DNA of 64,000 nt. Source: an uncultured Candidatus Saccharibacteria bacterium. Its GTDB lineage: Bacteria; Patescibacteriota; Minisyncoccia; Phycocordibacterales; Zambryskibacteraceae. Of the stretch, positions 1 through 15,409 are shown piece after piece. The DNA is taken from positions 168,290 to 232,289 of the forward strand of contig CAZSOL010000001.1 of the NCBI GenBank assembly GCA_964608585.1, given 5' to 3'. Under the pieces are notes generated by a model, which was given only the letters and a program-made list of their open reading frames with translations, searched no databases and was not told the origin of the DNA. The number at the start of each line of letters is the position of its first letter. The first letter of the stretch is position 1. The position numbers were made by a program, and so were the translations under genes.

Positions 1-496
1 CCGAGATCATCCCGGCGTAGAACTGCTCCATAGAGGAGATAGTGGACTTAAGATCTCTGTCCTGACCACCCTCACTCTTAAGCGAGTCCGGCATCACCAC
101 CTCAAAGAGAGTCATGTTGAGGGCTCGGTACATAGGTCCGCTCTCCTTCACATCTCTTATCCTTAAACCTTGGCGCACGAGATCTACTAAGTGATCGTGG
201 AAGTCGTCCTCGTGCTTCCAATCTAGAAGCTTCTCTGCGACAGACAGAGCATGGAAGACTCCCTTCGTCCTTGTGACCTGTATCATCTTGTCTAGTTGGG
301 CATCTACAGGGGCACTAGCCACATTAGCCAGAGTATCCTTAACCTCCACTGTTTGCCTCATTGGTGCGGGCAGGGCTCGGTGGGTCTCTAGTATCGCTTG
401 CTTCACCGCTTCCGGCTTCTCGCTATAAGACTCAACTCTTGAGCGAAGATACGCTAGCTCCTCCTCCACACTATTAAAGCGTATTGCTTCTGACAT
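1..496 (-). CDS. hypothetical protein, N-terminal part (gene continues beyond the window's left edge)
   Basis: Minus-strand ATG at 496-494 opens a frame (MSEAIRFNSVEEELAYLRS...) that stays open to position 1 when read by eye. It lies 12 nt downstream of the preceding minus-strand gene. No domain recognised. Confidence 0.4.
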   Translation of the reverse strand, partial: MSEAIRFNSVEEELAYLRSRVESYSEKPEAVKQAILETHRALPAPMRQTVEVKDTLANVASAPVDAQLDKMIQVTRTKGVFHALSVAEKLLDWKHEDDFHDHLVDLVRQGLRIRDVKESGPMYRALNMTLFEVVMPDSLKSEGGQDRDLKSTISSMEQFYAGMIS

Positions 497-508
497 GAGA
501 AAATTATA

Positions 509-3531: not shown

Positions 3532-3978
3532 TTACTTTATTGAGTCTATGCGGACTTCAAAGTATGGCTGACGGTGTCCGTATTTCTTGAAGTACTTGGA
3601 CTTCTGCTTGTAGTGGATAACATCCACAGTCTTGTATCTTGAGATCTTGGTGATAGTTGAGGTTACGGTAGAACCAGATACAGAAGGAGTGCCAATAGTG
3701 GCGTTGTCTCCGTCTGCCTTGAGTAGAACCTCTCTAAAGACAAGTGTATCCCCCTCCTTGTGGTCACCCAAGACCTTCTCAATCTTGAGGTTCTGACCCT
3801 CGTGGACTCGGTACTGCTTGCCTCCAGTAGTGATAACAGCAAAGACGTCCTTATTTGAGGATTTTGAGGCTTTAGGAGCTTTTACAGCCTTAGGAGCGAC
3901 CTTCTTAGATTGTTCGGCAACCTCGGCTTTTGGGGCCTTCTTTGGGGCTGATTTCTTTGCTTTTGTAGCTTCTGCCAT
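3532..3978 (-). CDS. rplU: 50S ribosomal protein bL21 with ~45-aa Lys/Ala/Pro-rich N-terminal extension
   Basis: Core FAVITTGGKQYRVHEGQNLKIEKV matches bL21. The N-terminus MAEATKAKKSAPKKAPKAEVAEQSKKVAPKAVKAPKASK is histone-H1-like low complexity. Confidence 0.85.
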   Translation of the reverse strand: MAEATKAKKSAPKKAPKAEVAEQSKKVAPKAVKAPKASKSSNKDVFAVITTGGKQYRVHEGQNLKIEKVLGDHKEGDTLVFREVLLKADGDNATIGTPSVSGSTVTSTITKISRYKTVDVIHYKQKSKYFKKYGHRQPYFEVRIDSIK

Positions 3979-3985
3979 AGGGGGT

Positions 3986-4993
3986 CTATTCTACATTAGG
4001 ACGGTCCAAAGTCAATGTATCCACCCCCGCCCCAGAGCCGGTTATACGAAGGACGTCCTTGTCTATCTTGTTTAGTTCCTTATAGCCTGTGTTGTAGTGG
4101 TTTACCACCGTACCTAGAGAGTTACCTAGCTTTTTGTAGTACTCATCATAGGTCTTGATGTGCCGGCCTAGGTCCTCCACCTTTTTTATAATCTCCTGTG
4201 CCTTCTCCTCAATTTGCAAAGCCTTAAGACCTTGAAGAACTGTCTGTAAGTATGCGAGGAAGGATGTTGGAGAGACGATGATCACTTTGTACTTGGAGGC
4301 AGCGCGCTGGACCAGAGACTCAGTCTCCTCTTGGAGAGCTCCAATCTTGTTTACGATAAGGTCGTAGTAGATAGCCTCGTGTGGGATAAACATAAAGGCG
4401 AAGTCCATAGTCCCCTTCTCTGGCCTGATGTACTTGGAGGTCTCTTGGATGCGCATCTTAAGGTCACTCACAAATAACTTTTCTAGTTTTGCTTTTTCTA
4501 CTGGGTCCTTCTCCTCCACAAGACGGTTATAGTTCTCAAGAGAGAATTTGGAGTCCACTGGTATTATCTTCTCCTTCACGAAGACGACTGCATCTGGCAC
4601 CAGTCTCGCACCATCGTCGTCTACTCCAAGCTCAAATTGCATTTCATACGACCCCGGTGGCATCACATTCTTAAGCAAGGTCTCCAAGTAGTACTCTCCG
4701 AGTACCCCTCTTTGCTTCGGGTTCTTCAAGATGTCTTGGAGGCTCTCAAGTTGCTCTGCGAAGCCAACCATCTGCTTACCTGTCTCGTCTACTCTTGTGA
4801 CCTTCTCAATAATCTCCTTGATGTTGGTGTTGACCGAACGAGAGAGCTCTTGCATCTGGTTTTGTATAAGTAGCATACCCTGCCCATCATCCTGCTTCTC
4901 CTCCTTTTTACTAAGAAGCTTGAAGAAGAGTCCGATATTTATGGCCAAAATAGCTACCAAGAGGACAATTATCCAATTCATTGGTATCATCAT
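3986..4993 (-). CDS. rmuC: DNA recombination protein RmuC
   Basis: N-terminal TM helix plus coiled coil, then GEYYLETLL, FMFIPHEAIYY and VSPTSFLAYL motifs typical of the RmuC family. Confidence 0.8.
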   Translation of the reverse strand: MMIPMNWIIVLLVAILAINIGLFFKLLSKKEEKQDDGQGMLLIQNQMQELSRSVNTNIKEIIEKVTRVDETGKQMVGFAEQLESLQDILKNPKQRGVLGEYYLETLLKNVMPPGSYEMQFELGVDDDGARLVPDAVVFVKEKIIPVDSKFSLENYNRLVEEKDPVEKAKLEKLFVSDLKMRIQETSKYIRPEKGTMDFAFMFIPHEAIYYDLIVNKIGALQEETESLVQRAASKYKVIIVSPTSFLAYLQTVLQGLKALQIEEKAQEIIKKVEDLGRHIKTYDEYYKKLGNSLGTVVNHYNTGYKELNKIDKDVLRITGSGAGVDTLTLDRPNVE

Positions 4994-4996
4994 AAC

Positions 4997-5452
4997 ATGT
5001 CACTACAAACAGATATAAAAGCCCAAGTTATTGAGGCTATGAAGGCCAAGGACAGCATTAAAGTTTCTGTCCTTCGCGGACTTTCGGCTGCCTTTACCAA
5101 CGAGCTGGTTGCCAAGAAGATGAAGCCCGATGGCGAACTTACAGATGAGGATGCTCTCGCTGTCATAAGCAAGGAGGCCCGCAAGCGTAAGGATTCTATA
5201 GAGCAGTTTGAGAAGGGTGGACGCCCAGAGCTTGCGGAAGATGAGAGAGCCGAGCTCGCCATACTTGAGACCTTCCTCCCTGAGCAGATGAGCTACGAGG
5301 CAGTACTAGAGTTCGTGAAGGCCAAACAAGCTGAGATGGGCGCCACCGACAAGTCTAAGGCAGGCCAGTTTATGGGAGCTGTCATGAAGGACCTTAAGGG
5401 CAAGGCCGATGGCCAGGTGGTCAAACAAGCCATAGACTCCCTCTTCGCTTAA
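4997..5452 (+). CDS. GatB/YqeY domain protein
   Basis: 151-aa all-helical protein whose sequence pattern is typical of the YqeY/GatB C-terminal domain family. Confidence 0.75.
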   Translation: MSLQTDIKAQVIEAMKAKDSIKVSVLRGLSAAFTNELVAKKMKPDGELTDEDALAVISKEARKRKDSIEQFEKGGRPELAEDERAELAILETFLPEQMSYEAVLEFVKAKQAEMGATDKSKAGQFMGAVMKDLKGKADGQVVKQAIDSLFA

Positions 5453-5580
5453 GTTATCCACAGATTTTCTCCAAGGGGAGGGCTTGGTGGAAGGTTTTGA
5501 GCTTGACTTTTGGTATTGTTTATGATAGGATTAGAAACCAGAAAGTACCTAACTCCATTTACATCCTTCCGGGAGGATAT

Positions 5581-5781
5581 ATGAAAGTTTCTGATGCTGA
5601 AGCAGATGCGTTGTTTCGTGAGAGACTCCTGCGTCTCAACGGTGGCAAGGACATCATCGTGCACAAGAGAGGTAAGGTGTTAGTCGCGATCATGTCTAAT
5701 ACTGAGAAGCCGACAGAAGAAACTGCACAAGAACAGTTTGACCGGCATGAGCTACAGCTTCCCAGAGGTGATCGTGAGTAA
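5581..5781 (+). CDS. small hypothetical protein (66 aa), weak Phd/YefM-antitoxin-like pattern
   Basis: GGAGG lies 7 nt upstream of ATG 5581, so the longer track ORF start is discounted. DIIVHKRGKVLVAIMS resembles the Phd/YefM core, but no toxin partner is adjacent. Confidence 0.35.
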   Translation: MKVSDAEADALFRERLLRLNGGKDIIVHKRGKVLVAIMSNTEKPTEETAQEQFDRHELQLPRGDRE

Positions 5782-5785
5782 CAAA

Positions 5786-5831
5786 GGGCGGATTCCGAGA
5801 CATCGGAGTCCGCCCTGAATTTTTATTTCAA
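5786..5831. terminator. bidirectional rho-independent terminator
   Basis: GGGCGGATTCCGA-GACA-TCGGAGTCCGCCC hairpin followed by a TTTTTATTT run. It lies between the convergent stops at 5781 and 5823. Confidence 0.5.
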
Positions 5832-6074
5832 AAAACCTTCTTTGATTAACAAGTGTCTTTTTTGTCCTTGGAGTCCGTTGTAACCACCCACTCTTCCATC
5901 ACTTCGTATCACTCGGTGGCACGGCACCTTTTTGTCTACATTCTTGTTCAAAATGTTCCCCACCGCTCTGAAGGCTAGAGGTCTCCCCGCCTTCCTTGCT
6001 ACCTCCTTATAGGTCATAACCTTCCCTCTTGGTATCTTCCTCACTACTTCGTAGACCTTATCTTTAAAATTCAT
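5823..6074 (-). CDS. MGMT-family DNA-binding domain protein (methylated-DNA-protein-cysteine methyltransferase C-terminal domain, stand-alone)
   Basis: 83 aa carrying the PCHRV active-site motif and an HTH; the N-terminal Ada/Ogt domain is absent. Confidence 0.75.
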   Translation of the reverse strand: MNFKDKVYEVVRKIPRGKVMTYKEVARKAGRPLAFRAVGNILNKNVDKKVPCHRVIRSDGRVGGYNGLQGQKRHLLIKEGFLK

Positions 6075-6103
6075 TTTGTGATTATAACAAAAACCGCGAG
6101 CTA

Positions 6104-6442
6104 CTAGCTCGCGGTTGTAACACTTGGTCGACGCTTGGGCTTCATTCGCTCAAGATGAGCCTTGAGCTTGTGTACGTTGCCAAGCTTACTTCCGACCCTG
6201 TCCTTACCCATGTCACGAATGATCCGTCCATCACCCATCAACTTGTAGACGCAGATCTTCATAGCAGGGTTGTTACGAAGGAGACTCACGAACTCCTTGT
6301 CGCACTCCCAGACGGGTCTGTGCTTACCATCTGCACAACGGATCTCAGTCATGGACAGAGAGTGGTCGAGCATCTCGGAGATCCGCTGGTTGGTGATCGG
6401 GTTAAGGGGGTACACGAACCAGCTAACGACGCGTTTCGACAT
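6104..6442 (-). CDS. hypothetical protein (112 aa)
   Basis: Start placed at MSKRVV because GAGGAG lies 4 nt upstream; the track ORF extends 14 codons further, over the promoter-like TGTTATAAT. Confidence 0.45.
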   Translation of the reverse strand: MSKRVVSWFVYPLNPITNQRISEMLDHSLSMTEIRCADGKHRPVWECDKEFVSLLRNNPAMKICVYKLMGDGRIIRDMGKDRVGSKLGNVHKLKAHLERMKPKRRPSVTTAS

Positions 6443-6472
6443 CTGCTCCTCGGGGTTCAGGGTTCTCCCAGC

Positions 6473-6481
6473 ATTATAACA
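6473..6481 (-). promoter_or_regulatory. extended -10 box TGTTATAAT upstream of the 6104..6442 gene
   Basis: Exact TGnTATAAT on the minus strand about 30 nt upstream of the preferred ATG. Confidence 0.35.
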
Positions 6482-6534
6482 CATTAATTCATATTTGAGA
6501 AATTTTGATAATCCTGTTATTATTTCTCTCCTAA

Positions 6535-6606
6535 GGCCCTATCGTCTATCGGCTAGGACACATCCTTCTCAAGGATGGAAGCAGGGTTCGACTCCCTGTA
6601 GGGTCA
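6535..6606 (+). tRNA. tRNA-Glu (anticodon CTC)
   Basis: Cloverleaf read by hand: 7-bp acceptor GGCCCTA/TAGGGTC, D-arm GTCT..GGAC, anticodon stem CATCC/GGATG with loop TTCTCAA, T-arm CAGGG-TTCGACT-CCCTG, discriminator A; CCA not encoded. Confidence 0.85.
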
Positions 6607-6630
6607 CAAATTGGTTGGTATACTATTGTT

Positions 6631-7083
6631 ATGCACCACGGCAATTCGTATCGAAATTTATTCGCTATGGCTCTCTTATCCTTCGGAGCAATGTTTGTGC
6701 TTATGTATGTGATGGTAAACACGTTTAGCAATGTGCTTATTAATCTAAACCAATTATATATGGCAGGACTCATGACAATGCCAATGATACTTATAGAAAT
6801 GTGGTTGATGAGAGACATGTATCCGAACCACCAATTAAACTCATTGATTATACTTTTCAGTTTGATTATGGGATTGTTATTCTGGTCTGGTATCAGAAAC
6901 CAGATAGGAATAAACAACCAAGAGTTTCTGAAATCGATGATCCCCCATCATGCTGGAGCCATACTTATGTGTGAGAAAGCTTCTTTAACAGATCCAGAAA
7001 TATTAGATCTCTGTAAAAATATAATTTCTGGTCAGCAAGCGGAAATAGATTTTATGAGAAATAAGCTAAATTCAGTAAAATGA
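6631..7083 (+). CDS. DUF305-like membrane protein
   Basis: 3-4 TM helices followed by the MIPHHAGAILMCE motif characteristic of DUF305. The stop overlaps the next start in an ATGA. Confidence 0.5.
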   Translation: MHHGNSYRNLFAMALLSFGAMFVLMYVMVNTFSNVLINLNQLYMAGLMTMPMILIEMWLMRDMYPNHQLNSLIILFSLIMGLLFWSGIRNQIGINNQEFLKSMIPHHAGAILMCEKASLTDPEILDLCKNIISGQQAEIDFMRNKLNSVK

Positions 7084-7259
7084 CATATCAAGAATTTGTT
7101 AAAAAGTTAATAGAGAGATTCGGAGAAGAGCAAGGAGTGATAATGGCTCTAAGGGCAGAAGTTGGATTTCTCCGTAAATTCATAGAAAAACAAAACCTCC
7201 CCAACTTCAAAGAGGAGCAGGAGGAAATGATAGATGACTTCCTCAAAAGACACTTATGA
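7080..7259 (+). CDS. small hypothetical protein (59 aa), translationally coupled
   Basis: ATGA overlaps with both neighbours (7080-7083 and 7256-7259). Too short to appear in the ORF track; sequence MTYQEFVKKLIERFGEEQG... Confidence 0.4.
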   Translation: MTYQEFVKKLIERFGEEQGVIMALRAEVGFLRKFIEKQNLPNFKEEQEEMIDDFLKRHL

Positions 7260-7672
7260 AAACTTTTATACCTCTCATCCTAATTCTTTTCGCGATAGTC
7301 GGTGGTATCTCCCTAACAAAATATAACCAATCCACTGACCCAGAGATTATCTCAACCAAAGGCATACACTGGCATCCAGAACTCAAAATCTTCGTTGACG
7401 GAGTTGAAATGGTTATACCAGAAAATATTGGTCTCATTGATGAACATAGCCCAATACATACTCATGATGATCTACCGATTATTCATCTAGAATTTAATGG
7501 TATCGTGAGAAGAGAGGATACTAAGCTAAAGAACTTCTTTATGGTATGGCAAAAAGATATAAGAGACTTTGGAGATAATGTATCAATGACGGTAAATGGG
7601 GTACCCAATCAAGAACTTGGAGAGTACGAGATGAAGCATGAGGACAAAATTGTTTTGAACTACTCAAAGTAA
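7256..7672 (+). CDS. secreted or membrane-anchored His-rich protein (138 aa), possible metal-binding
   Basis: N-terminal signal/TM helix, then HWHP, HSPIHTHDD and IIH motifs. Third gene of the DUF305 operon. Confidence 0.5.
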   Translation: MKTFIPLILILFAIVGGISLTKYNQSTDPEIISTKGIHWHPELKIFVDGVEMVIPENIGLIDEHSPIHTHDDLPIIHLEFNGIVRREDTKLKNFFMVWQKDIRDFGDNVSMTVNGVPNQELGEYEMKHEDKIVLNYSK

Positions 7673-7696
7673 CATTTTGGGTATAGAATTGTATCC

Positions 7697-7828
7697 ATGA
7701 TGGGATATGGATATAACGGCAGTTGGATGTTTGGGGGAAGCGGTCTATGGTCTATTACCTGTATTGTAATAACTATTGACCTTATCCTTCTTGGCATCTG
7801 GCTTTGGAAGCAAATTAAGAAGAGTTAA
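7697..7828 (+). CDS. candidate small membrane peptide (43 aa)
   Basis: MMGYGYNGSWMFGGSGLWSITCIVITIDLILLGIWLWKQIKKS has a Gly-rich N-terminus and one TM helix. No obvious Shine-Dalgarno, so the call is speculative. Confidence 0.25.
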   Translation: MMGYGYNGSWMFGGSGLWSITCIVITIDLILLGIWLWKQIKKS

Positions 7829-7847
7829 ATCTTTTAATTTCTTCAAT

Positions 7848-8159
7848 ATGAAAAGATTTTTATTAGTATTTGTATTTCTTGTTGCCACACTAGCAGTTTA
7901 TATTGGGTGGTATAAAGTAGAACCTCCACACCAATTAGGCAAACTTATGCCTGTGGAGGTTTATGTGTCTCAAAACATTTCCGAACTCTCGCCAGAGAAG
8001 GAGGTCCTGGGTGGCAAGTTCTATATCACCAACATCCAAGTGGCAGACGGCAAAGGAGTGGTGTCATACGAGGACGGACATGTGGCCTTCACAGCTGACT
8101 TCACCTACACCTCTGACGACCGCACTGGTCACACCATCACATCTTTTGTAGTAAGATAA
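7848..8159 (+). CDS. hypothetical secreted protein
   Basis: Start moved to MKRFLLVFVFLVATLA (signal/TM); the track ORF begins at an upstream TTG. Beta-rich C-terminus, no domain recognised. Confidence 0.45.
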   Translation: MKRFLLVFVFLVATLAVYIGWYKVEPPHQLGKLMPVEVYVSQNISELSPEKEVLGGKFYITNIQVADGKGVVSYEDGHVAFTADFTYTSDDRTGHTITSFVVR

Positions 8160-8164
8160 TATCT

Positions 8165-8572
8165 ATGCAAAATTTAGAAAAATATTCACCAACCGTATTA
8201 AGAGTTGGTATTGCGTTAGTCATTATTTGGTTTGGGTTGGAACAAATGAAGGACTTTGAGGCTTGGTCTGGCATCATCCCAAGTTGGGCAACGAGCCTCA
8301 CAGGACTCTCGGCTGTAACTATTGTGAAGATCAATGCTTGGTCGGAAGTTGTCTTCGGCCTAGCACATCTCTTGGGTATCTATACAAGGATAACTGGTCT
8401 CATACTTACCCTACACATGGCAACCATCACCTTCATAGTTGGCTACAACCCAACAGGAGTTAGAGACTTCGGAGTTACTATAGGAGCACTGGCAAGCTTT
8501 ATGCACGGAGTGAGCCCACTAAGCTTAGACGCTTGGAGACTCCGAAGGAAGAGTACTCCGGTACAAAATTAA
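8165..8572 (+). CDS. DoxX family membrane protein
   Basis: 135 aa with 4 TM helices in the DoxX-like pattern. Confidence 0.6.
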   Translation: MQNLEKYSPTVLRVGIALVIIWFGLEQMKDFEAWSGIIPSWATSLTGLSAVTIVKINAWSEVVFGLAHLLGIYTRITGLILTLHMATITFIVGYNPTGVRDFGVTIGALASFMHGVSPLSLDAWRLRRKSTPVQN

Positions 8573-9882
8573 ACTCTACTCCTCCACTCCTCGTCCTGAC
8601 GGACGAGGAGTTTCTCTTTCTTCTCTGGGTTTGCCATAAGCTCCTCAACACATCTCTCCATACGCACACCTTGAGATCCTTTGACCAAAATGATATCCCC
8701 TTCCTTTATCAAGTCCTTCATAAACTTCCCTGCTTCTACAGAGTCGTCAAATTGGAAAATCTTACTCTCATGCATACCAGAGCTTAGAGCTTCTTCGGCG
8801 GTTAGTCTAGATCTTACCCCAACAGTAGCGAGGATGGAGGATGCCTTGCTAGCCAACTTGCCGGTCTCTCTATGAGCCTCAGCGGTGAATCTCCCAAGCT
8901 CAAGCATATCTCCTAATATCGCTATCCTCCTCGCGCTCCTAGATGGCAACTTTATAGACTTTAAGCTCTTTAAGGCCTCAGCCACAGCAACCGGAGATGA
9001 GTTGTACGTGTCGTCAATCAAGGTTGAACCTTTAATACCTGACAAGATACGCATACGACCAGAGGTTGGATCTTCGTTTTGGAAGACCTTGCTTGCAATC
9101 CTAATATCAAAGCCTAGATGCTTTACAAGAAGAAGAGAGGCCAAAATGTGGTAGCTGTGTTGCTCACCCAAAGTATCCTTAAGAACGATCGGTAAAGACT
9201 CAGTAGTCTCTGGAGAGACTACCTCAAACATAACTCCTCTTACCTTCTTCTCCTCATCATAAACAAGCCCATAATTGGTTGCGGACAAATCTGCTCCAGA
9301 GGAGTTCCCGAAGAGAAGCACCTTACCCCCACTTAGGTTTTTATATCGCAAGACATCCTTATCGTCTGCATTGAGCATCAATGTACCATCGGGCTTCAAG
9401 GCCTTGACCAAGTTGCCCTTTTCCTCAAAGAGTTCTTCCGGAGAGACGAAGGCCTCTACGTGGACAGGCACCTTAGAGAGTTTGGTAACGATAACAATGT
9501 CCGGTTTTAACCACTCTGTTATTTCCTTGATATCCCCCGGCCTATCGGTACCGACCTCAAGTACTAACCAGTTTGGATAATGGTGGGGTAAAAGGATAAG
9601 GATAACCCCTTCCAACAAAACCTTGAACCACCCCAATATGTTGTTGCTAGGATTCTTAGTCCCCAAAATTGTAAGAGGTATCCCAAGCTCGCTATTGAAG
9701 CTCTTGTAGCTCTTTCTAACACTCTCAAAACGAGAAAGAGTAGCGTAGACCGCATCCTTGGTTGAGGTCTTGCCCACCGTGCCTGTAATAGCAATAATCT
9801 TTGGTTGGTACTTATCAAGAACTCTCTTAGAGAGCTTGTGGAGTACTTTTATAAAAATGGGCTTCAAAACGTCCTTGATCAT
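8569..9882 (-). CDS. murF: UDP-N-acetylmuramoyl-tripeptide--D-alanyl-D-alanine ligase MurF
   Basis: ITGTVGKTSTKD P-loop and DDTYNSSP motif; the Mur ligase three-domain pattern is recognisable. Confidence 0.9.
   Translation of the reverse strand: MIKDVLKPIFIKVLHKLSKRVLDKYQPKIIAITGTVGKTSTKDAVYATLSRFESVRKSYKSFNSELGIPLTILGTKNPSNNILGWFKVLLEGVILILLPHHYPNWLVLEVGTDRPGDIKEITEWLKPDIVIVTKLSKVPVHVEAFVSPEELFEEKGNLVKALKPDGTLMLNADDKDVLRYKNLSGGKVLLFGNSSGADLSATNYGLVYDEEKKVRGVMFEVVSPETTESLPIVLKDTLGEQHSYHILASLLLVKHLGFDIRIASKVFQNEDPTSGRMRILSGIKGSTLIDDTYNSSPVAVAEALKSLKSIKLPSRSARRIAILGDMLELGRFTAEAHRETGKLASKASSILATVGVRSRLTAEEALSSGMHESKIFQFDDSVEAGKFMKDLIKEGDIILVKGSQGVRMERCVEELMANPEKKEKLLVRQDEEWRSRV
8587..8622 (+). 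terminator. rho-independent terminator of the doxX gene, embedded in the 3' coding end of convergent murF
   Basis: Perfect 10-bp stem CTCCTCGTCC-TGAC-GGACGAGGAG followed by TTTCTCTTTCTT. On the other strand the same bases encode murF residues ...LLVRQDEEWRS. Confidence 0.5.
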
Positions 9883-11984: not shown

Positions 11985-12841
11985 TTCTTTTCTAAAACTC
12001 TTAGCTTGGCACTTCGTGAGCGAGGGTTGCTCTTCACCTCCTCATCACTTGGTACTACGGGTTTCTTGGTGATGAGTATTGCCTTCTCCCCCTTCGCCTT
12101 CTCTCTCATAAAGTTCTTCACTATCCTGTCCTCAAGACTGTGGAAGGAAATGACAGCGAGTCGTCCATGAGGAGTGAGAGAGTTGAAGGCCTTCTCCAAG
12201 CCATCTTCTAGGGCTTGGAGCTCTTCGTTGACTGCTATCCTAATCGCTTGGAAGGTCTTTGTGGCGGGGTGGATCTTACCTATGCGCTTGCCAACCACTT
12301 CTACAAGATCCTGCGTGGTCTTGAAGGGCTTTGTCTCCCTCCTCTCCACTATGGCTCTGGCAATCTGTCTTGAGCGCTTCTCCTCACCAAATCCTCGGAG
12401 GACAAGCTCAATGGCATGCTCATCCCAGGAGTTAAGAATTTGGCTAGCGGTTAAGCCTTCCCTAGACATCCGCATATCAAGCGGTTCGTCCCGAAGGAAG
12501 GAGAAGCCTCTACCAGAGTCATCTATCTGCTCACTTGAGATCCCAAGGTCAAGAAGAATAGCGTTTACCCCACTTACTCCAAGCTCCTTCAAAACATTGT
12601 CCATGTTTCTAAAGCTCTCGAGTCTAAGGTAGGTGCTGTGAGTGAGCTCGCGGAGTCTCTCCTCACTACGCTTCAAGGCCTCTGGGTCTCTGTCTATCCC
12701 AATGATTTCTACACCGTCCCCAAACTTCTCTGCGACGAGTAAGCTGTGTCCGGCACTGCCTAAAGTGCCGTCGAGGAAGATGTCGCCATCCTTGAGATTC
12801 AGACCTTCTATTGCTTCGTGTAAAAGTACAGGTTTATGCAT
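11981..12841 (-). CDS. rsmH: 16S rRNA (cytosine1402-N4)-methyltransferase RsmH
   Basis: MHKPVLLHEAIEGL start (shorter than the track ORF) and GTLGSAGHS SAM motif. Confidence 0.9.
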   Translation of the reverse strand: MHKPVLLHEAIEGLNLKDGDIFLDGTLGSAGHSLLVAEKFGDGVEIIGIDRDPEALKRSEERLRELTHSTYLRLESFRNMDNVLKELGVSGVNAILLDLGISSEQIDDSGRGFSFLRDEPLDMRMSREGLTASQILNSWDEHAIELVLRGFGEEKRSRQIARAIVERRETKPFKTTQDLVEVVGKRIGKIHPATKTFQAIRIAVNEELQALEDGLEKAFNSLTPHGRLAVISFHSLEDRIVKNFMREKAKGEKAILITKKPVVPSDEEVKSNPRSRSAKLRVLEKK

Positions 12842-13229
12842 ATTCCGACTCGAGCTTCTTCCTATAAGCATCCCAACGTTTGTCGTTCCAGATCTCCACT
12901 TTGTCGTGGACTCCGGTGACAACCACTGAGTTCTTGAGCTCTGCGAACTCTCTCAAGAACTCGGGTATAAGGATCCTGCCTATAGAATCAATCTCAATCT
13001 CGGCTGCACCAGCGAAAGTGAATCGCTCATATTGGTGGTCGTTTTGTACGTGACCAAGCTTCTTCACCTCCTTGGAGATGTCTTGCCAAGTCTTGAATGG
13101 ATAGAGAGATAAACAACGGTCCTTACCGCGAGTGATGACCACCTTCTTGCCAAGCTCTTTCCTAAACTTGGCTGGAAGTGAGAAGCGTTTCTTCTCATCT
13201 ACTGTGTGTGTATACTCGCCGATGAACAT
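12834..13229 (-). CDS. mraZ: transcriptional regulator MraZ
   Basis: MFIGEYTHTVDEKKRFSLPAKFR... shows the duplicated DxxxR MraZ fold. Start chosen at the conserved MF(I/L)GEY rather than the track ORF start. Confidence 0.85.
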   Translation of the reverse strand: MFIGEYTHTVDEKKRFSLPAKFRKELGKKVVITRGKDRCLSLYPFKTWQDISKEVKKLGHVQNDHQYERFTFAGAAEIEIDSIGRILIPEFLREFAELKNSVVVTGVHDKVEIWNDKRWDAYRKKLESEYA

Positions 13230-13326
13230 TGTTTGTAACTTTACCACACTTTCCCACCTAGACACCATTCTATCCCACCACACTCCACTCACCTACCATT
13301 CTTATCCACACCTCCTTTTTGGTACG

Positions 13327-13357
13327 AAAAAGGCGTGAGTTCCTAAGAACTCACGCC
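13327..13357 (-). terminator. rho-independent terminator of the 13363..13974 gene
   Basis: 11-bp perfect stem GGCGTGAGTTC-CTAA-GAACTCACGCC lying 5 nt beyond the stop codon, followed on the minus strand by TTTTT. Confidence 0.55.
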
Positions 13358-13362
13358 TTGTA

Positions 13363-13974
13363 CTACTTACCTCGGAGGACCATCTGGATCCCCACAGCAC
13401 TGTTGCTGCTCTTAGCCTCGTTGTCCACCATGAAGGGCGACCACCACACCTCAAGAGGAACTTGCTTGAAAAGCCTCATGAGGAACCTTGGCCCAGTACC
13501 CATCCCAGTCTGCGAATAGATACCGAAACTAAAGCCCTGCACCGGCTTGCAAAGCAAGTCAGCAGAGTACCAGTCGCTCTCCTTGTCTTCTCCGGTCTCG
13601 TAATATCCTTCAAGAGTGCATGGAGCATCTCCGAAGAGTAGTAGAGATCCAGCAACACGAGGCAGAGTCTCCTCCGTACCAACTCTCTCAGCTCCAGCCG
13701 CAAGGCCAAGCTCAAACCAGTTGGTAAAGTCGAAGAAAACTCCAAGCACTCCAGAGACGTAGTCTCTCTCGTGATAGACAAAGCCCCAGAGTCCCCACCT
13801 CTCGCCAACAGATACCCAGCCGTTTAGCTGGTTATTGGTATAGAGGGTGTCCCTCCCAGACTCTGTCTGTGTGGAAAGTCGCTGATGTTGGAAGCTGAGC
13901 TCGTGGCTCTGAGCGACCAAGTCAGCAGGAGTCAACCAAAAGAGGATGACCAGAAGCCAGTACTTGGAACGCAT
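13363..13974 (-). CDS. secreted beta-rich protein of unknown function (signal peptide; possible beta-barrel)
   Basis: Signal peptide MRSKYWLLVILFWLTPADLVAQ, then ~180 aa rich in alternating aromatic/Gly stretches (GWVSVGERWGLWGFVY). The gene has its own promoter and terminator, and its GC content appears above the neighbouring genes. Confidence 0.5.
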   Translation of the reverse strand: MRSKYWLLVILFWLTPADLVAQSHELSFQHQRLSTQTESGRDTLYTNNQLNGWVSVGERWGLWGFVYHERDYVSGVLGVFFDFTNWFELGLAAGAERVGTEETLPRVAGSLLLFGDAPCTLEGYYETGEDKESDWYSADLLCKPVQGFSFGIYSQTGMGTGPRFLMRLFKQVPLEVWWSPFMVDNEAKSSNSAVGIQMVLRGK

Positions 13975-14020
13975 CGCTTGCTCCCTGATGTTTGGTGTTA
14001 GAGTGCTTAGTTCTACCCTA

Positions 14021-14049
14021 ATACTATCACAAATCTACCTAATAGTCAA
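14021..14049 (-). promoter_or_regulatory. sigma70-like promoter of the 13363..13974 gene
   Basis: Minus strand reads TTGACT, a 17-nt spacer, then TAGTAT. GGGAG lies 7 nt upstream of the ATG at 13974. Confidence 0.4.
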
Positions 14050-14056
14050 GCTGTAT

Positions 14057-15409
14057 TTAGTCCCTATTTTTAGGCTTAAGAGTTGGGAAGAGGATTACTT
14101 CCTTAATGTTGGTGACGTTGGTGAGGAGCATCACAAGGCGGTCTATACCGATACCGATACCACCATTAGGAGGCATGCCGTACTCCATTGCTTCAAGATA
14201 CTCCATATCTGATGGTGAGATGTCTTTGTCCCCTTTCTTCCCCTTCTTATCTTCTTCTAAGTATCTCTCACGCTGGTCTATTGGGTTGTTTAATTCGGAA
14301 AAGGCGTTAACCAACTCTGCACCACACATCACAAGTTGGAAGCGATCTATAAGCTCTGGATTGTCATCCTTACGCTTAGCAAAAGGATTCGCAGAGACTG
14401 GGTAGTCTATAAGGAAGGTCGGTTGTATAAGACTCGGACGCAAGGTCTTCTTGTACTCCTCATCTGTCATATCGGGGAACTTCATCACCTTGAAGTCAGG
14501 TTCAAGGTCAACCATCTCGCCTTGATACTCAAACTGAAGCTTGCCAAAGACCCCCTTAACCACATACCTAAACAAATCTTGGATAAAATCTCTCTGCATC
14601 TTGGCATCCTCGTAAGCAGAGTTGGACTCAAGCATAGTGAACTCGGGGTTGTGTGTAGAGTCTATCCCCTCGTTTCTAAACCTCTTACCAATCTCAAAGA
14701 CCTTTGGCATTCCACCTCCCAAGAGCTCCTTAAGATACAGCTCCTGAGCAATAGGAAGATAAAAGTCCATATCAAGCGCGTTGTGATGCGTGGTAAAGGG
14801 CGCTGCAGTGGCTCCGCCTGCTAGAGGTTGAAGGTTAGGAAGATCTACTTCTACATAACCGGCCTTCAGATAAAACTCTCTGATGAGAGAGACTATCTTT
14901 GATCGAGTTAGGAAGCGAGCCTTAACCTCAGGACTTGAGAGAAGGTCCAAGTATCGCTTACGAAACCTCTCCTCAATATCGGTAAGCCCTGCCCACTTCT
15001 CGGGTAAGGGTCTCAGTGACTTAGCCAACATCTTTAAGTCTTCAACGAGTAAGGTCTTCTCATTTTGCTTAGTAAGGAAGAGCTCACCCTTGATCTCAAT
15101 AAAGTCTCCAATGTCAAAAAACTCATTGAACAACTCAAAACTTTCTTCCTTAGTTGGGTCCCCTTTCTTAAGCAGGGCTTGGAACTTCCCTGTACCGTCG
15201 TCTATATCAAAAAAGATTACTTTGCCTTGTCCACGAATGGCCATTATTCTTCCAACCAACTGGAGTCTCTCTCCACTGACAAAAGTTGCTGACGCATCTG
15301 CCAGAGTTTTGTCAAAATGAGAAGTAGTTGGATAAGGGTTTATCCCACGAGCGATGAGAGCTTCAAGCTTCTTTATGCGAGTGTCGCGTATTTCGTCTAT
15401 AGATGCCAC
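14057..15409 (-). CDS. lysS: lysine--tRNA ligase (class II)
   Basis: N-terminal OB anticodon-binding domain followed by class II motifs 1-3; 450 aa. Confidence 0.9.

Follow-up and report, generated by a model that had tools for sequence, protein, structure and literature searches.

A small accessory gene cassette on the 3' side of tRNA-Glu in an uncultured bacterium of the candidate phyla radiation

The locus and its cassette

The DNA analysed here is a 64,000-nt stretch of contig CAZSOL010000001.1, from an uncultured Candidatus Saccharibacteria bacterium, and is called the window throughout. The subject is the interval between yqeY and murF, and above all the segment following tRNA-Glu(CTC), where a short cassette separates the tRNA and its leader from sec103, the gene for a secreted protein (Table 1). 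A first-pass annotation had taken about 3 kb around this tRNA as a small variable region within a minus-strand-dominated layout, and had proposed it as a tRNA-adjacent integration hotspot. The listed features were checked by scans for open reading frames (ORFs), tRNAs and families (ARAGORN, Rfam, Pfam and NCBIfam) and by a promoter and hairpin scan. These scans confirm the YqeY gene, the MGMT domain, the 112-aa gene with its extended -10 box, tRNA-Glu(CTC), the trio of DUF305, small and His-rich genes, the secreted protein and DoxX; the Rfam scan of the block finds nothing besides the tRNA. The block has one ORF of 140 aa or more, and the predominance of minus-strand genes described earlier is borne out from ~8.5 kb onward.

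Table 1. Features of the yqeY-murF interval (window positions; SD, Shine-Dalgarno sequence)
Feature	Position	Strand	Evidence or remark
yqeY (GatB/YqeY-domain protein), left anchor	4997..5452	+	Pfam PF09424, E 3.7e-41
Conserved intergenic segment: hairpin after yqeY and promoter-like TTGACT-17-TAGGAT (5503-5531) ahead of orf66	5453..5550	+	blastn, three-way alignment, promoter scan
orf66, internally deleted member of a ~130-aa family	5581..5781	+	also listed as 94-aa ORF from TTG 5497; SD GGAGG 6 nt before ATG 5581
G+C-rich hairpin, 14 pairs, terminator-like, between convergent orf66 and MGMT	5785..5816	.	stem conserved in L007, L008
Stand-alone MGMT/Ogt C-terminal domain protein, 83 aa	5823..6074	-	PF01035 E 6.9e-29 (100 bits); TIGR00589 E 3e-22 (78.4 vs cutoff 46.4)
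unk112, 112-aa protein	6104..6442	-	TG-extended -10 promoter TTCTCA-17-TATAAT (6501..6473); terminator hairpin 6116-6092
tRNA promoter TTGAGA-17-TATTAT	6495-6523 (conserved segment 6474..6607)	+	promoter scan
tRNA-Glu(CTC)	6535..6607	+	ARAGORN, Rfam
Leader, 23 nt, tRNA to DUF305	6608..6630	+	orthologous to the L008 tRNA-to-sec103 leader; blastn block reaches 6633
DUF305/CopM-like membrane-anchored protein, 150 aa, first cassette gene	6631..7083	+	PF03713, 43.1 bits vs cutoff 27
small59, 59 aa, second cassette gene	7080..7259	+	ORF; 81% identical homolog in L104/L105
His138, N-terminally anchored secreted protein, 138 aa, third cassette gene	7256..7672	+	ORF, homolog family
pep43, candidate 43-aa ORF: Gly-rich N-terminus and one hydrophobic helix	7697..7828	+	ORF list only
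sec103, secreted 103-aa protein, backbone gene next to murF	7848..8159	+	conserved in relatives
DoxX-family membrane protein, second presence/absence segment	8165..8572	+	PF07681, 34.7 bits vs cutoff 23.6
murF, right anchor, end of dcw cluster	8569..9882	-	Pfam Mur_ligase_M/C, homolog list, identity matrix
Hairpin, perfect 11 pairs then T-run, terminator-like for the convergent + strand unit	8586..8611	+	inside last murF codons (LLVRQDEE)

The cassette starts 24 nt past tRNA-Glu, and its DUF305, small59 and His138 genes are linked by ATGA stop/start overlaps. Its fourth member, pep43, corresponds to the candidate 43-aa transmembrane peptide of the first-pass annotation; the ORF exists, but no homolog was detected in any fetched locus and it stands as a candidate ORF only. 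The segment from the leader to the end of the cassette (6608-7847) has a GC content of 0.360 against a window mean of 0.455, which places it in the lowest 0.2% of the 1240-bp segments of the 64 kb, and the minimum of the GC scan (0.355) falls inside it. Homology with relatives breaks off at 6608/6633 and picks up again at 7937. The leader of the window ranks best of 113 segments upstream of start codons when each is compared with the leader that joins the tRNA directly to sec103 in the relative L008. Since the two leaders are thus orthologous, the foreign DNA spans approximately 6631-7847.

Occupied and empty sites in related genomes

Seven related loci were recovered besides the window's own, W (Table 2); in three of them, L007, L008 and L108, the interval is complete. 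L007 and L009 are sisters (MurF 95% identical), and W, L008 and the L007/L009 pair are about equidistant from one another (~83%). Parcubacteria and Minisyncoccota are among the names borne by MurF homologs, and the genome accordingly belongs to the candidate phyla radiation. The backbone order yqeY, a gene of ~100-134 aa, MGMT, a small gene of the unk112 family, tRNA-Glu(CTC), sec103 and murF is found in L007, L008 and L108. The tRNA is 100% identical among W, L007 and L008; yqeY is 97% identical in L007 and 91% in L008, and is also present in L108. For sec103, a family found in 83 metagenome or genome loci, the identities are 89% in L007, 76% in L008 and 61% in L005. At the DNA level, conserved blastn blocks cover 4992-5550 (ending at 5549/5551 in L007 and L008), 5755/5810-6095, 6474-6608 (extending to 6633 in L008), 7937-8166 and 8575 onward.

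Table 2. The tRNA-Glu to sec103 segment in the compared loci (MurF identity to the window)
Locus	MurF	tRNA-Glu to sec103	DoxX
W	100%	four-gene cassette	present
L009	84%	contig begins 91 nt ahead of the 23-mer preceding sec103	present
L008	83%	22 nt, empty	absent
L007	82%	different three-gene cassette	present
L101	66%	57 nt, tRNA inverted, contig ends in tRNA (apparently empty)	absent
L108	64%	22 nt, empty	absent
L010	63%	contig begins inside sec103	absent
L005	63%	no tRNA found in locus	absent

The four-gene block after tRNA-Glu is present in W alone among the compared loci, and none of its genes (DUF305, small59, His138, pep43) has a homolog in 84 loci retrieved via MurF or sec103. Gene content between yqeY and murF is therefore not identical across relatives, which was the comparison proposed with the first-pass annotation. 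The variable part is smaller than was thought: the cassette and DoxX do vary, but the orf66 (orf94) family gene, MGMT, the unk112 family, the tRNA and sec103 belong to the backbone. Down to 64% MurF identity the interval is mostly conserved backbone, and only the cassette and DoxX are accessory.

In L101 the tRNA-Glu, at the contig end (9700-9729), lies in the opposite orientation, with its 5' end toward sec103 and 57 nt away from it; a local inversion of the tRNA is therefore implied in that lineage.

Repeats and folds at the insertion point

The cassette of L007 measures 1409 bp and occupies the same point as that of the window, with a GC content of 0.40, compared with 0.474 in its locus. 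Its three genes code for a secreted protein of 148 aa, a protein weakly like nucleoside deoxyribosyltransferases and an unknown protein of 128 aa. A direct repeat of 21 nt (20/21 identical) bounds the cassette on either side; the repeat is composed of the last 7 nt of the tRNA (GGGTCAC), a 7-nt leader (AGGCTTT) and the start codon with the four bases that follow it (ATGAAAA). The local-alignment score of this repeat is 37, compared with 18.5 +/- 2.2 in shuffled sequences, and was reached by none of 300 shuffles. In L009, an independent assembly from the sister lineage, the exact 23-mer TAGGGTCACAGGCTTTATGAAAA stands directly before sec103, with non-tRNA sequence upstream of it. Because the cassettes of W and L007 are unrelated and that of L007 is bounded by the repeat, the site has been used at least twice, one of these events leaving an att-like scar. 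The repeat in the sister lineage also offers a concrete site at which to seek the responsible recombinase.

Several other candidate traces were tried and set aside. The best local match between the tRNA with its flank and the following 1.35 kb in W, a 13-mer (12/13; 6610-6622 and 7902-7914), is at chance level, being reached by 41 of 300 shuffles, and its geometry is unfit for insertion. A decayed copy of the leader, sought at the right-hand junction of W, ranks only 14 of 113 and is not significant, and neither is a decayed 3' portion of the tRNA upstream of the right repeat in L007 and L009. In the search for a viral attP, all nine matches to an 18-mer trace to a single, unrelated family of phage sequences. 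As for an attC-like fold, the end of the L007 cassette folds no better than its shuffles (z -0.25). In the window, 7660-7860 folds better than shuffles (z -3.3), with several short hairpins that overlap the pep43 ORF.

The cargo proteins

CopM, the founding DUF305 protein, is a copper-binding protein of Synechocystis (PMC4335983). In the DUF305 protein of the cassette a hydrophobic N-terminal region comes first, and the match to PF03713 covers only the C-terminal half of the profile (positions 100-149 of 151). Its family is large, with 2492 homologs, the best of them 65% identical; one homolog at 62% is labelled Chthoniobacterales. Full-length homologs, 50-56% identical, occur on 395 plasmids. 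The context was examined on two of these, and each time it proved to be a copper or heavy-metal cluster: on Xanthomonas pLM159.1 the homolog is surrounded by CopC, CopD, a P-type ATPase for heavy metals and a CusA/CzcA pump, and on a Caulobacter plasmid it adjoins an RND efflux set. The cassette DNA itself has no DNA-level match among plasmids.

The two partners of the DUF305 protein belong to unannotated families. The His138 family comprises 588 homologs, the best 59% identical, and its named members are all bacteria of the candidate phyla radiation (CPR): Parcubacteria, Kaiserbacteria and Paceibacterota. His38, His40, His68, His70, His77 and Glu79 are invariant, and His64 is nearly so. The AlphaFold2 model has a pLDDT (predicted local distance difference test) score of 89.6, and the nearest solved folds are beta-grasp-like, though the matches are weak. 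In one locus a His138 homolog neighbours MauE and a ZIP transporter, and in another DsbD, a redoxin and an HMA P-type ATPase; no match to His138 was found in phages. The small59 protein has no family match and no evident signal peptide.

All three proteins recur together elsewhere. In a Minisyncoccota genome (L104/L105), homologs of small59 (81% identical), His138 (43%) and the DUF305 protein (63%) are adjacent, in an order that differs from that in W. This module shares a low-GC block (0.35-0.39; L104 4068-6800), which starts directly behind tRNA-Gln(TTG), with two unknown genes of 165 aa each. The 81% identity of small59 (window 7080-7259, L104 5323-5508), beside 63% for the neighbouring DUF305 protein and 43% for His138, is strong conservation that is unusual for so tiny a protein.

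Family and neighbourhood together point, by a modest balance, to a cargo whose role is to bind or buffer a metal at the envelope of the cell, either copper, the most likely one, or something similar. The tie of His138 and small59 to DUF305 as a recurring module would extend this envelope copper or metal hypothesis to hundreds of proteins now called 'hypothetical'. A role of the block in defence or as a toxin-antitoxin system was considered and rejected. The cargo proteins have no PHROG and no PADLOC match, and within the block PHROG matches only the backbone MGMT protein, to a family of DNA methyltransferases.

Origin of the cassette

The 3' side of tRNA-Glu is a real but ordinary tRNA-adjacent insertion hotspot, and one narrower than 3 kb. 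That the cassette of W was gained horizontally at this recurrent tRNA-side site is likely, given the empty site in L008 and L108, the different cassette in L007 and the composition of the segment. In the sequence of events that we propose, a foreign segment of ~1.2 kb would have entered behind the tRNA and its short leader and ahead of the resident sec103, carrying the DUF305/CopM-like gene, small59, His138 and possibly pep43. The recombinase may have been encoded elsewhere or since lost, and the distal repeat may have decayed in W. Site-specific recombination at the tRNA end is a tentative choice of mechanism, somewhat short of an even chance. Taken as a whole, the account of a horizontally gained cassette at a recurrent insertion point on the 3' side of tRNA-Glu, with a cargo that probably handles metal, is the one we favour with some confidence.

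A number of results weigh against this account, and they bear on the mechanism, the source and the cargo alike. Within the window, the 21-mer at the 3' end of the tRNA has no second match within three mismatches; the att-like repeat sought at this site is thus absent from the window itself and is represented by the 21-nt repeat of L007 and the 23-mer of L009. The largest ORF in 5453-8572 is ~150 aa, so that none is large enough for an integrase, and of the called genes within ~11-13 kb on either side none is annotated with an integrase Pfam family. The proposal of a tRNA-adjacent hotspot stands for the 3' side of the tRNA, but neither an integrase nor an att repeat accompanies it in the window. 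No viral contig in IMG/VR carries the 30-mer of the tRNA 3' end, and no repeat of the tRNA-Gln end was found at the L104 block. Identity between the cargo and its nearest homologs reaches only 59-65%, so that no donor stands out and nothing points to recent transfer. The NCBIfam CopM score of the DUF305 protein, 44.5 bits, is below the cutoff of 90, and the fold search with His138 gave no significant match to a solved structure. The metal function suggested here draws solely on domain family and gene neighbourhood.

The pattern of presence and absence might instead reflect loss. Reduced CPR genomes readily shed small genes that are not essential, and the cassette and DoxX could be ancestral, independently deleted in L008, L108, L101 and other relatives, with no insertion in W. 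The ease of such losses, the fact that the patchy distribution of DoxX is explicable by a single loss in L008, and the lack of an att scar in the window all fit this history. It sits poorly with the missing cassette in L008 and in the outgroups L101 and L108, and with the unrelated cassette at the same point in L007/L009. The cassette of W is also the lowest-GC stretch of the window, and flanking direct repeats such as those of the L007 cassette are typical of insertion; differential loss is accordingly an unlikely explanation. Allelic replacement deserves rather more weight, although we still regard it as improbable. Homologous recombination through the conserved flanks (the tRNA with its promoter, sec103/murF and MGMT) could swap whole variable segments between strains without site-specific machinery, and each variable segment does lie between highly conserved blocks, with a tRNA that is 100% identical and a promoter and terminator that are conserved. 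The window has no integrase or repeat, and such exchange suits the unk112 slot, whose members are 19-20% identical between neighbours of ~85%; it may contribute at the cassette site too. What it leaves unexplained is the 21-nt duplication of tRNA end, leader and start codon in L007, and the first entry of a cassette into an empty site.

An assembly artefact, in which the window would be a chimeric join of unrelated contigs at a tRNA common to several members of the community, is very improbable. Two Logan contigs of sample SRR15237806 do end or begin at ~6562 of the window, inside the tRNA, and L009, L010 and L101 also break at or near tRNA-Glu or the N-terminus of sec103. A strain-identical tRNA suffices by itself for such breaks in an assembly graph, however, and the independent assemblies of L007, L008 and L108 span MGMT, tRNA-Glu, sec103 and murF in one order. 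Moreover, the cassette shares a Logan contig with sec103, DoxX and murF, and a 238-kb NCBI contig bears the MurF, DUF305 and His138 proteins of the window. At the contig breaks near tRNA-Glu, the tRNA is 100% identical and its flanks ~75-87%; strain heterogeneity at the site could also contribute to them.

Gain of the cassette by insertion at the tRNA can be compared with two known kinds of element. As in tRNA-targeting islands, the accessory DNA of W lies immediately 3' of a tRNA, differs in presence and in cargo among relatives and has a low GC content, and in the sister lineage L007 a direct repeat overlaps the tRNA 3' end. Unlike such islands, the insert is very small (1.2-1.4 kb) and W has neither an integrase or mobility gene in or near it nor a repeat, while the L007 repeat, only 7 nt of which belong to the tRNA, continues across the leader of the following gene and its start codon. 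The likeness to integron cassettes lies in short, apparently promoter-less cassettes behind a resident promoter and leader, with different cassettes in different strains. In contrast to integrons, there is no IntI gene (no ORF of IntI size or family lies next to tRNA-Glu), an attC-like element is not evident at the L007 cassette end, and the insert is a single multi-gene piece per genome, not an array of cassettes. The cargo, for its part, resembles CopM and plasmid metal-resistance clusters in that the DUF305 protein scores above the Pfam cutoff and has homologs of 50-56% identity among CopC/CopD, P-type ATPase and RND efflux genes. It differs from them in having no efflux pump or regulator alongside, and in its partners, His138 and small59, which come from unannotated families with CPR bacteria as named members.

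A more far-reaching and quite speculative possibility, to which we give little credence, is that the Parcubacteria of this clade use a cassette-capture site at the tRNA-Glu 3' end. Short promoter-less packages of genes would enter there through a recombinase supplied in trans, with the tRNA end, leader and start codon duplicated (21 nt in L007), so that newcomers inherit the expression signals of the resident gene. Such a site would resemble an integron attI without IntI or attC, and the same metal module might travel between tRNA sites (tRNA-Glu in W, tRNA-Gln in L104). On the account that we favour, the locus records gene gain at a defined hotspot of a reduced, uncultured CPR genome and allows backbone to be separated from accessory DNA. 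Several labels of the first-pass annotation are corrected in the process; current understanding is not overturned.

DoxX and transcription signals

DoxX is found in three of the eight loci, W, L007 (83% identical) and L009 (80%), and is absent from L008, L010, L101, L108 and L005. In L005 a 139-aa unknown ORF stands in its place. The presence of the gene coincides with that of the 8586-8611 hairpin: W, L007 and L009, the loci with DoxX, alone retain the perfect stem, which is interrupted in L008, L005, L010 and L101 although the encoded peptide is largely conserved. The hairpin terminators that the first-pass annotation had placed at the two ends of the region do exist, at 5785-5816 and 8586-8611, but the second is inside the coding sequence of murF. 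No terminator-like site for the + strand occurs between the tRNA and DoxX, the next being this hairpin. The cassette, sec103 and DoxX would thus most likely form one + strand transcript that ends within murF, to judge from the signals in the sequence.

Two of the genes have a TG-extended -10 box very close to their start codon. The sequence TGgTATACT lies 6 nt before the ATG of DUF305 (6616-6630) and TGtTATAAT lies 6 nt before that of MGMT (6075-6089), both without a Shine-Dalgarno sequence. This arrangement suggests leaderless or near-leaderless starts for the two genes. At the cassette, the inserted genes may have taken over the resident leader and its -10 box.

Conserved genes to the left of the tRNA

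The gene orf66 had been read as an orphan mini-gene of the Phd/YefM type. It has no Pfam family at E <= 10, no NCBIfam or PADLOC match, and no antitoxin was found for it in a search of the PDB. Nor is it an orphan: the N and C termini of its 66-aa product align with proteins of 130 aa in L007 and 134 aa in L108 encoded at the same place, of which it is a deleted version. The promoter, the Shine-Dalgarno sequence, the first ~17 codons, the last ~12 codons and the terminator are conserved with L007. The lack of a family match, the convergent MGMT as next gene and homologs of ~130 aa with no assigned function led to rejection of the antitoxin reading.

The MGMT-domain protein retains an intact active-site PCHR, which reads VPCHRVIRSDG. 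It is without the N-terminal domain of full-length Ogt, and the full-length equivalogs score below their cutoffs. The gene is 84-86% identical in L007 and L008, and an 83-aa PF01035 gene occupies the same place in L108.

The third gene, unk112, is by its homologs, promoter and terminator a real gene; a + strand ORF of 110 aa (6155-6487) in the Logan annotation was dropped in its favour. Among cluster representatives it has 38 homologs at E <= 1e-3, two of them at <= 1e-10. The family is unannotated, with members of 85-130 aa, two nearly invariant Cys residues, an invariant Trp and a Lys/Arg-rich tail; the motif in full is W-F-x-E-P-L-D-x-x-T-N ... C-A-D-G-K-x-R-x-L-W-x-C followed by the basic tail. 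No Pfam, PHROG or PADLOC match was found for unk112, and a PDB fold search with its AlphaFold2 model (pLDDT 83) gave no significant solved match. When unk112 was aligned by hhalign with the proteins of the same slot, the probability was 91% for L007, 60% for L108 and 23% for L008. The slot proteins of L007 and L108 are 19-20% identical to it in these alignments, while the neighbouring genes are ~85% identical. The slot thus appears to be filled by divergent relatives from a single family and not by unrelated insertions, and its diversity reads as fast divergence or swapping among distant family members.

Surrounding genes

To the right of the interval, W and L008 are colinear over the five genes that lead from murF to mraZ. 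In L005, past sec111 and away from murF, there is a KAP-family P-loop NTPase (12518-14674) that measures 718 aa or more and is cut short by the contig end. To the left, on the minus strand of the window (3532-3978), ribosomal protein L21 bears a Lys/Ala/Pro-rich N-terminal extension of ~45 residues, for a total of 148 aa. At the left end of the window (1-500 and the DNA upstream of it, L003 2834-5500), an 888-aa ATPase of the DUF87, type IV secretion system DNA-transfer or TraG-like kind and a 301-aa unknown protein adjoin dnaB, and the pair is kept in L108.

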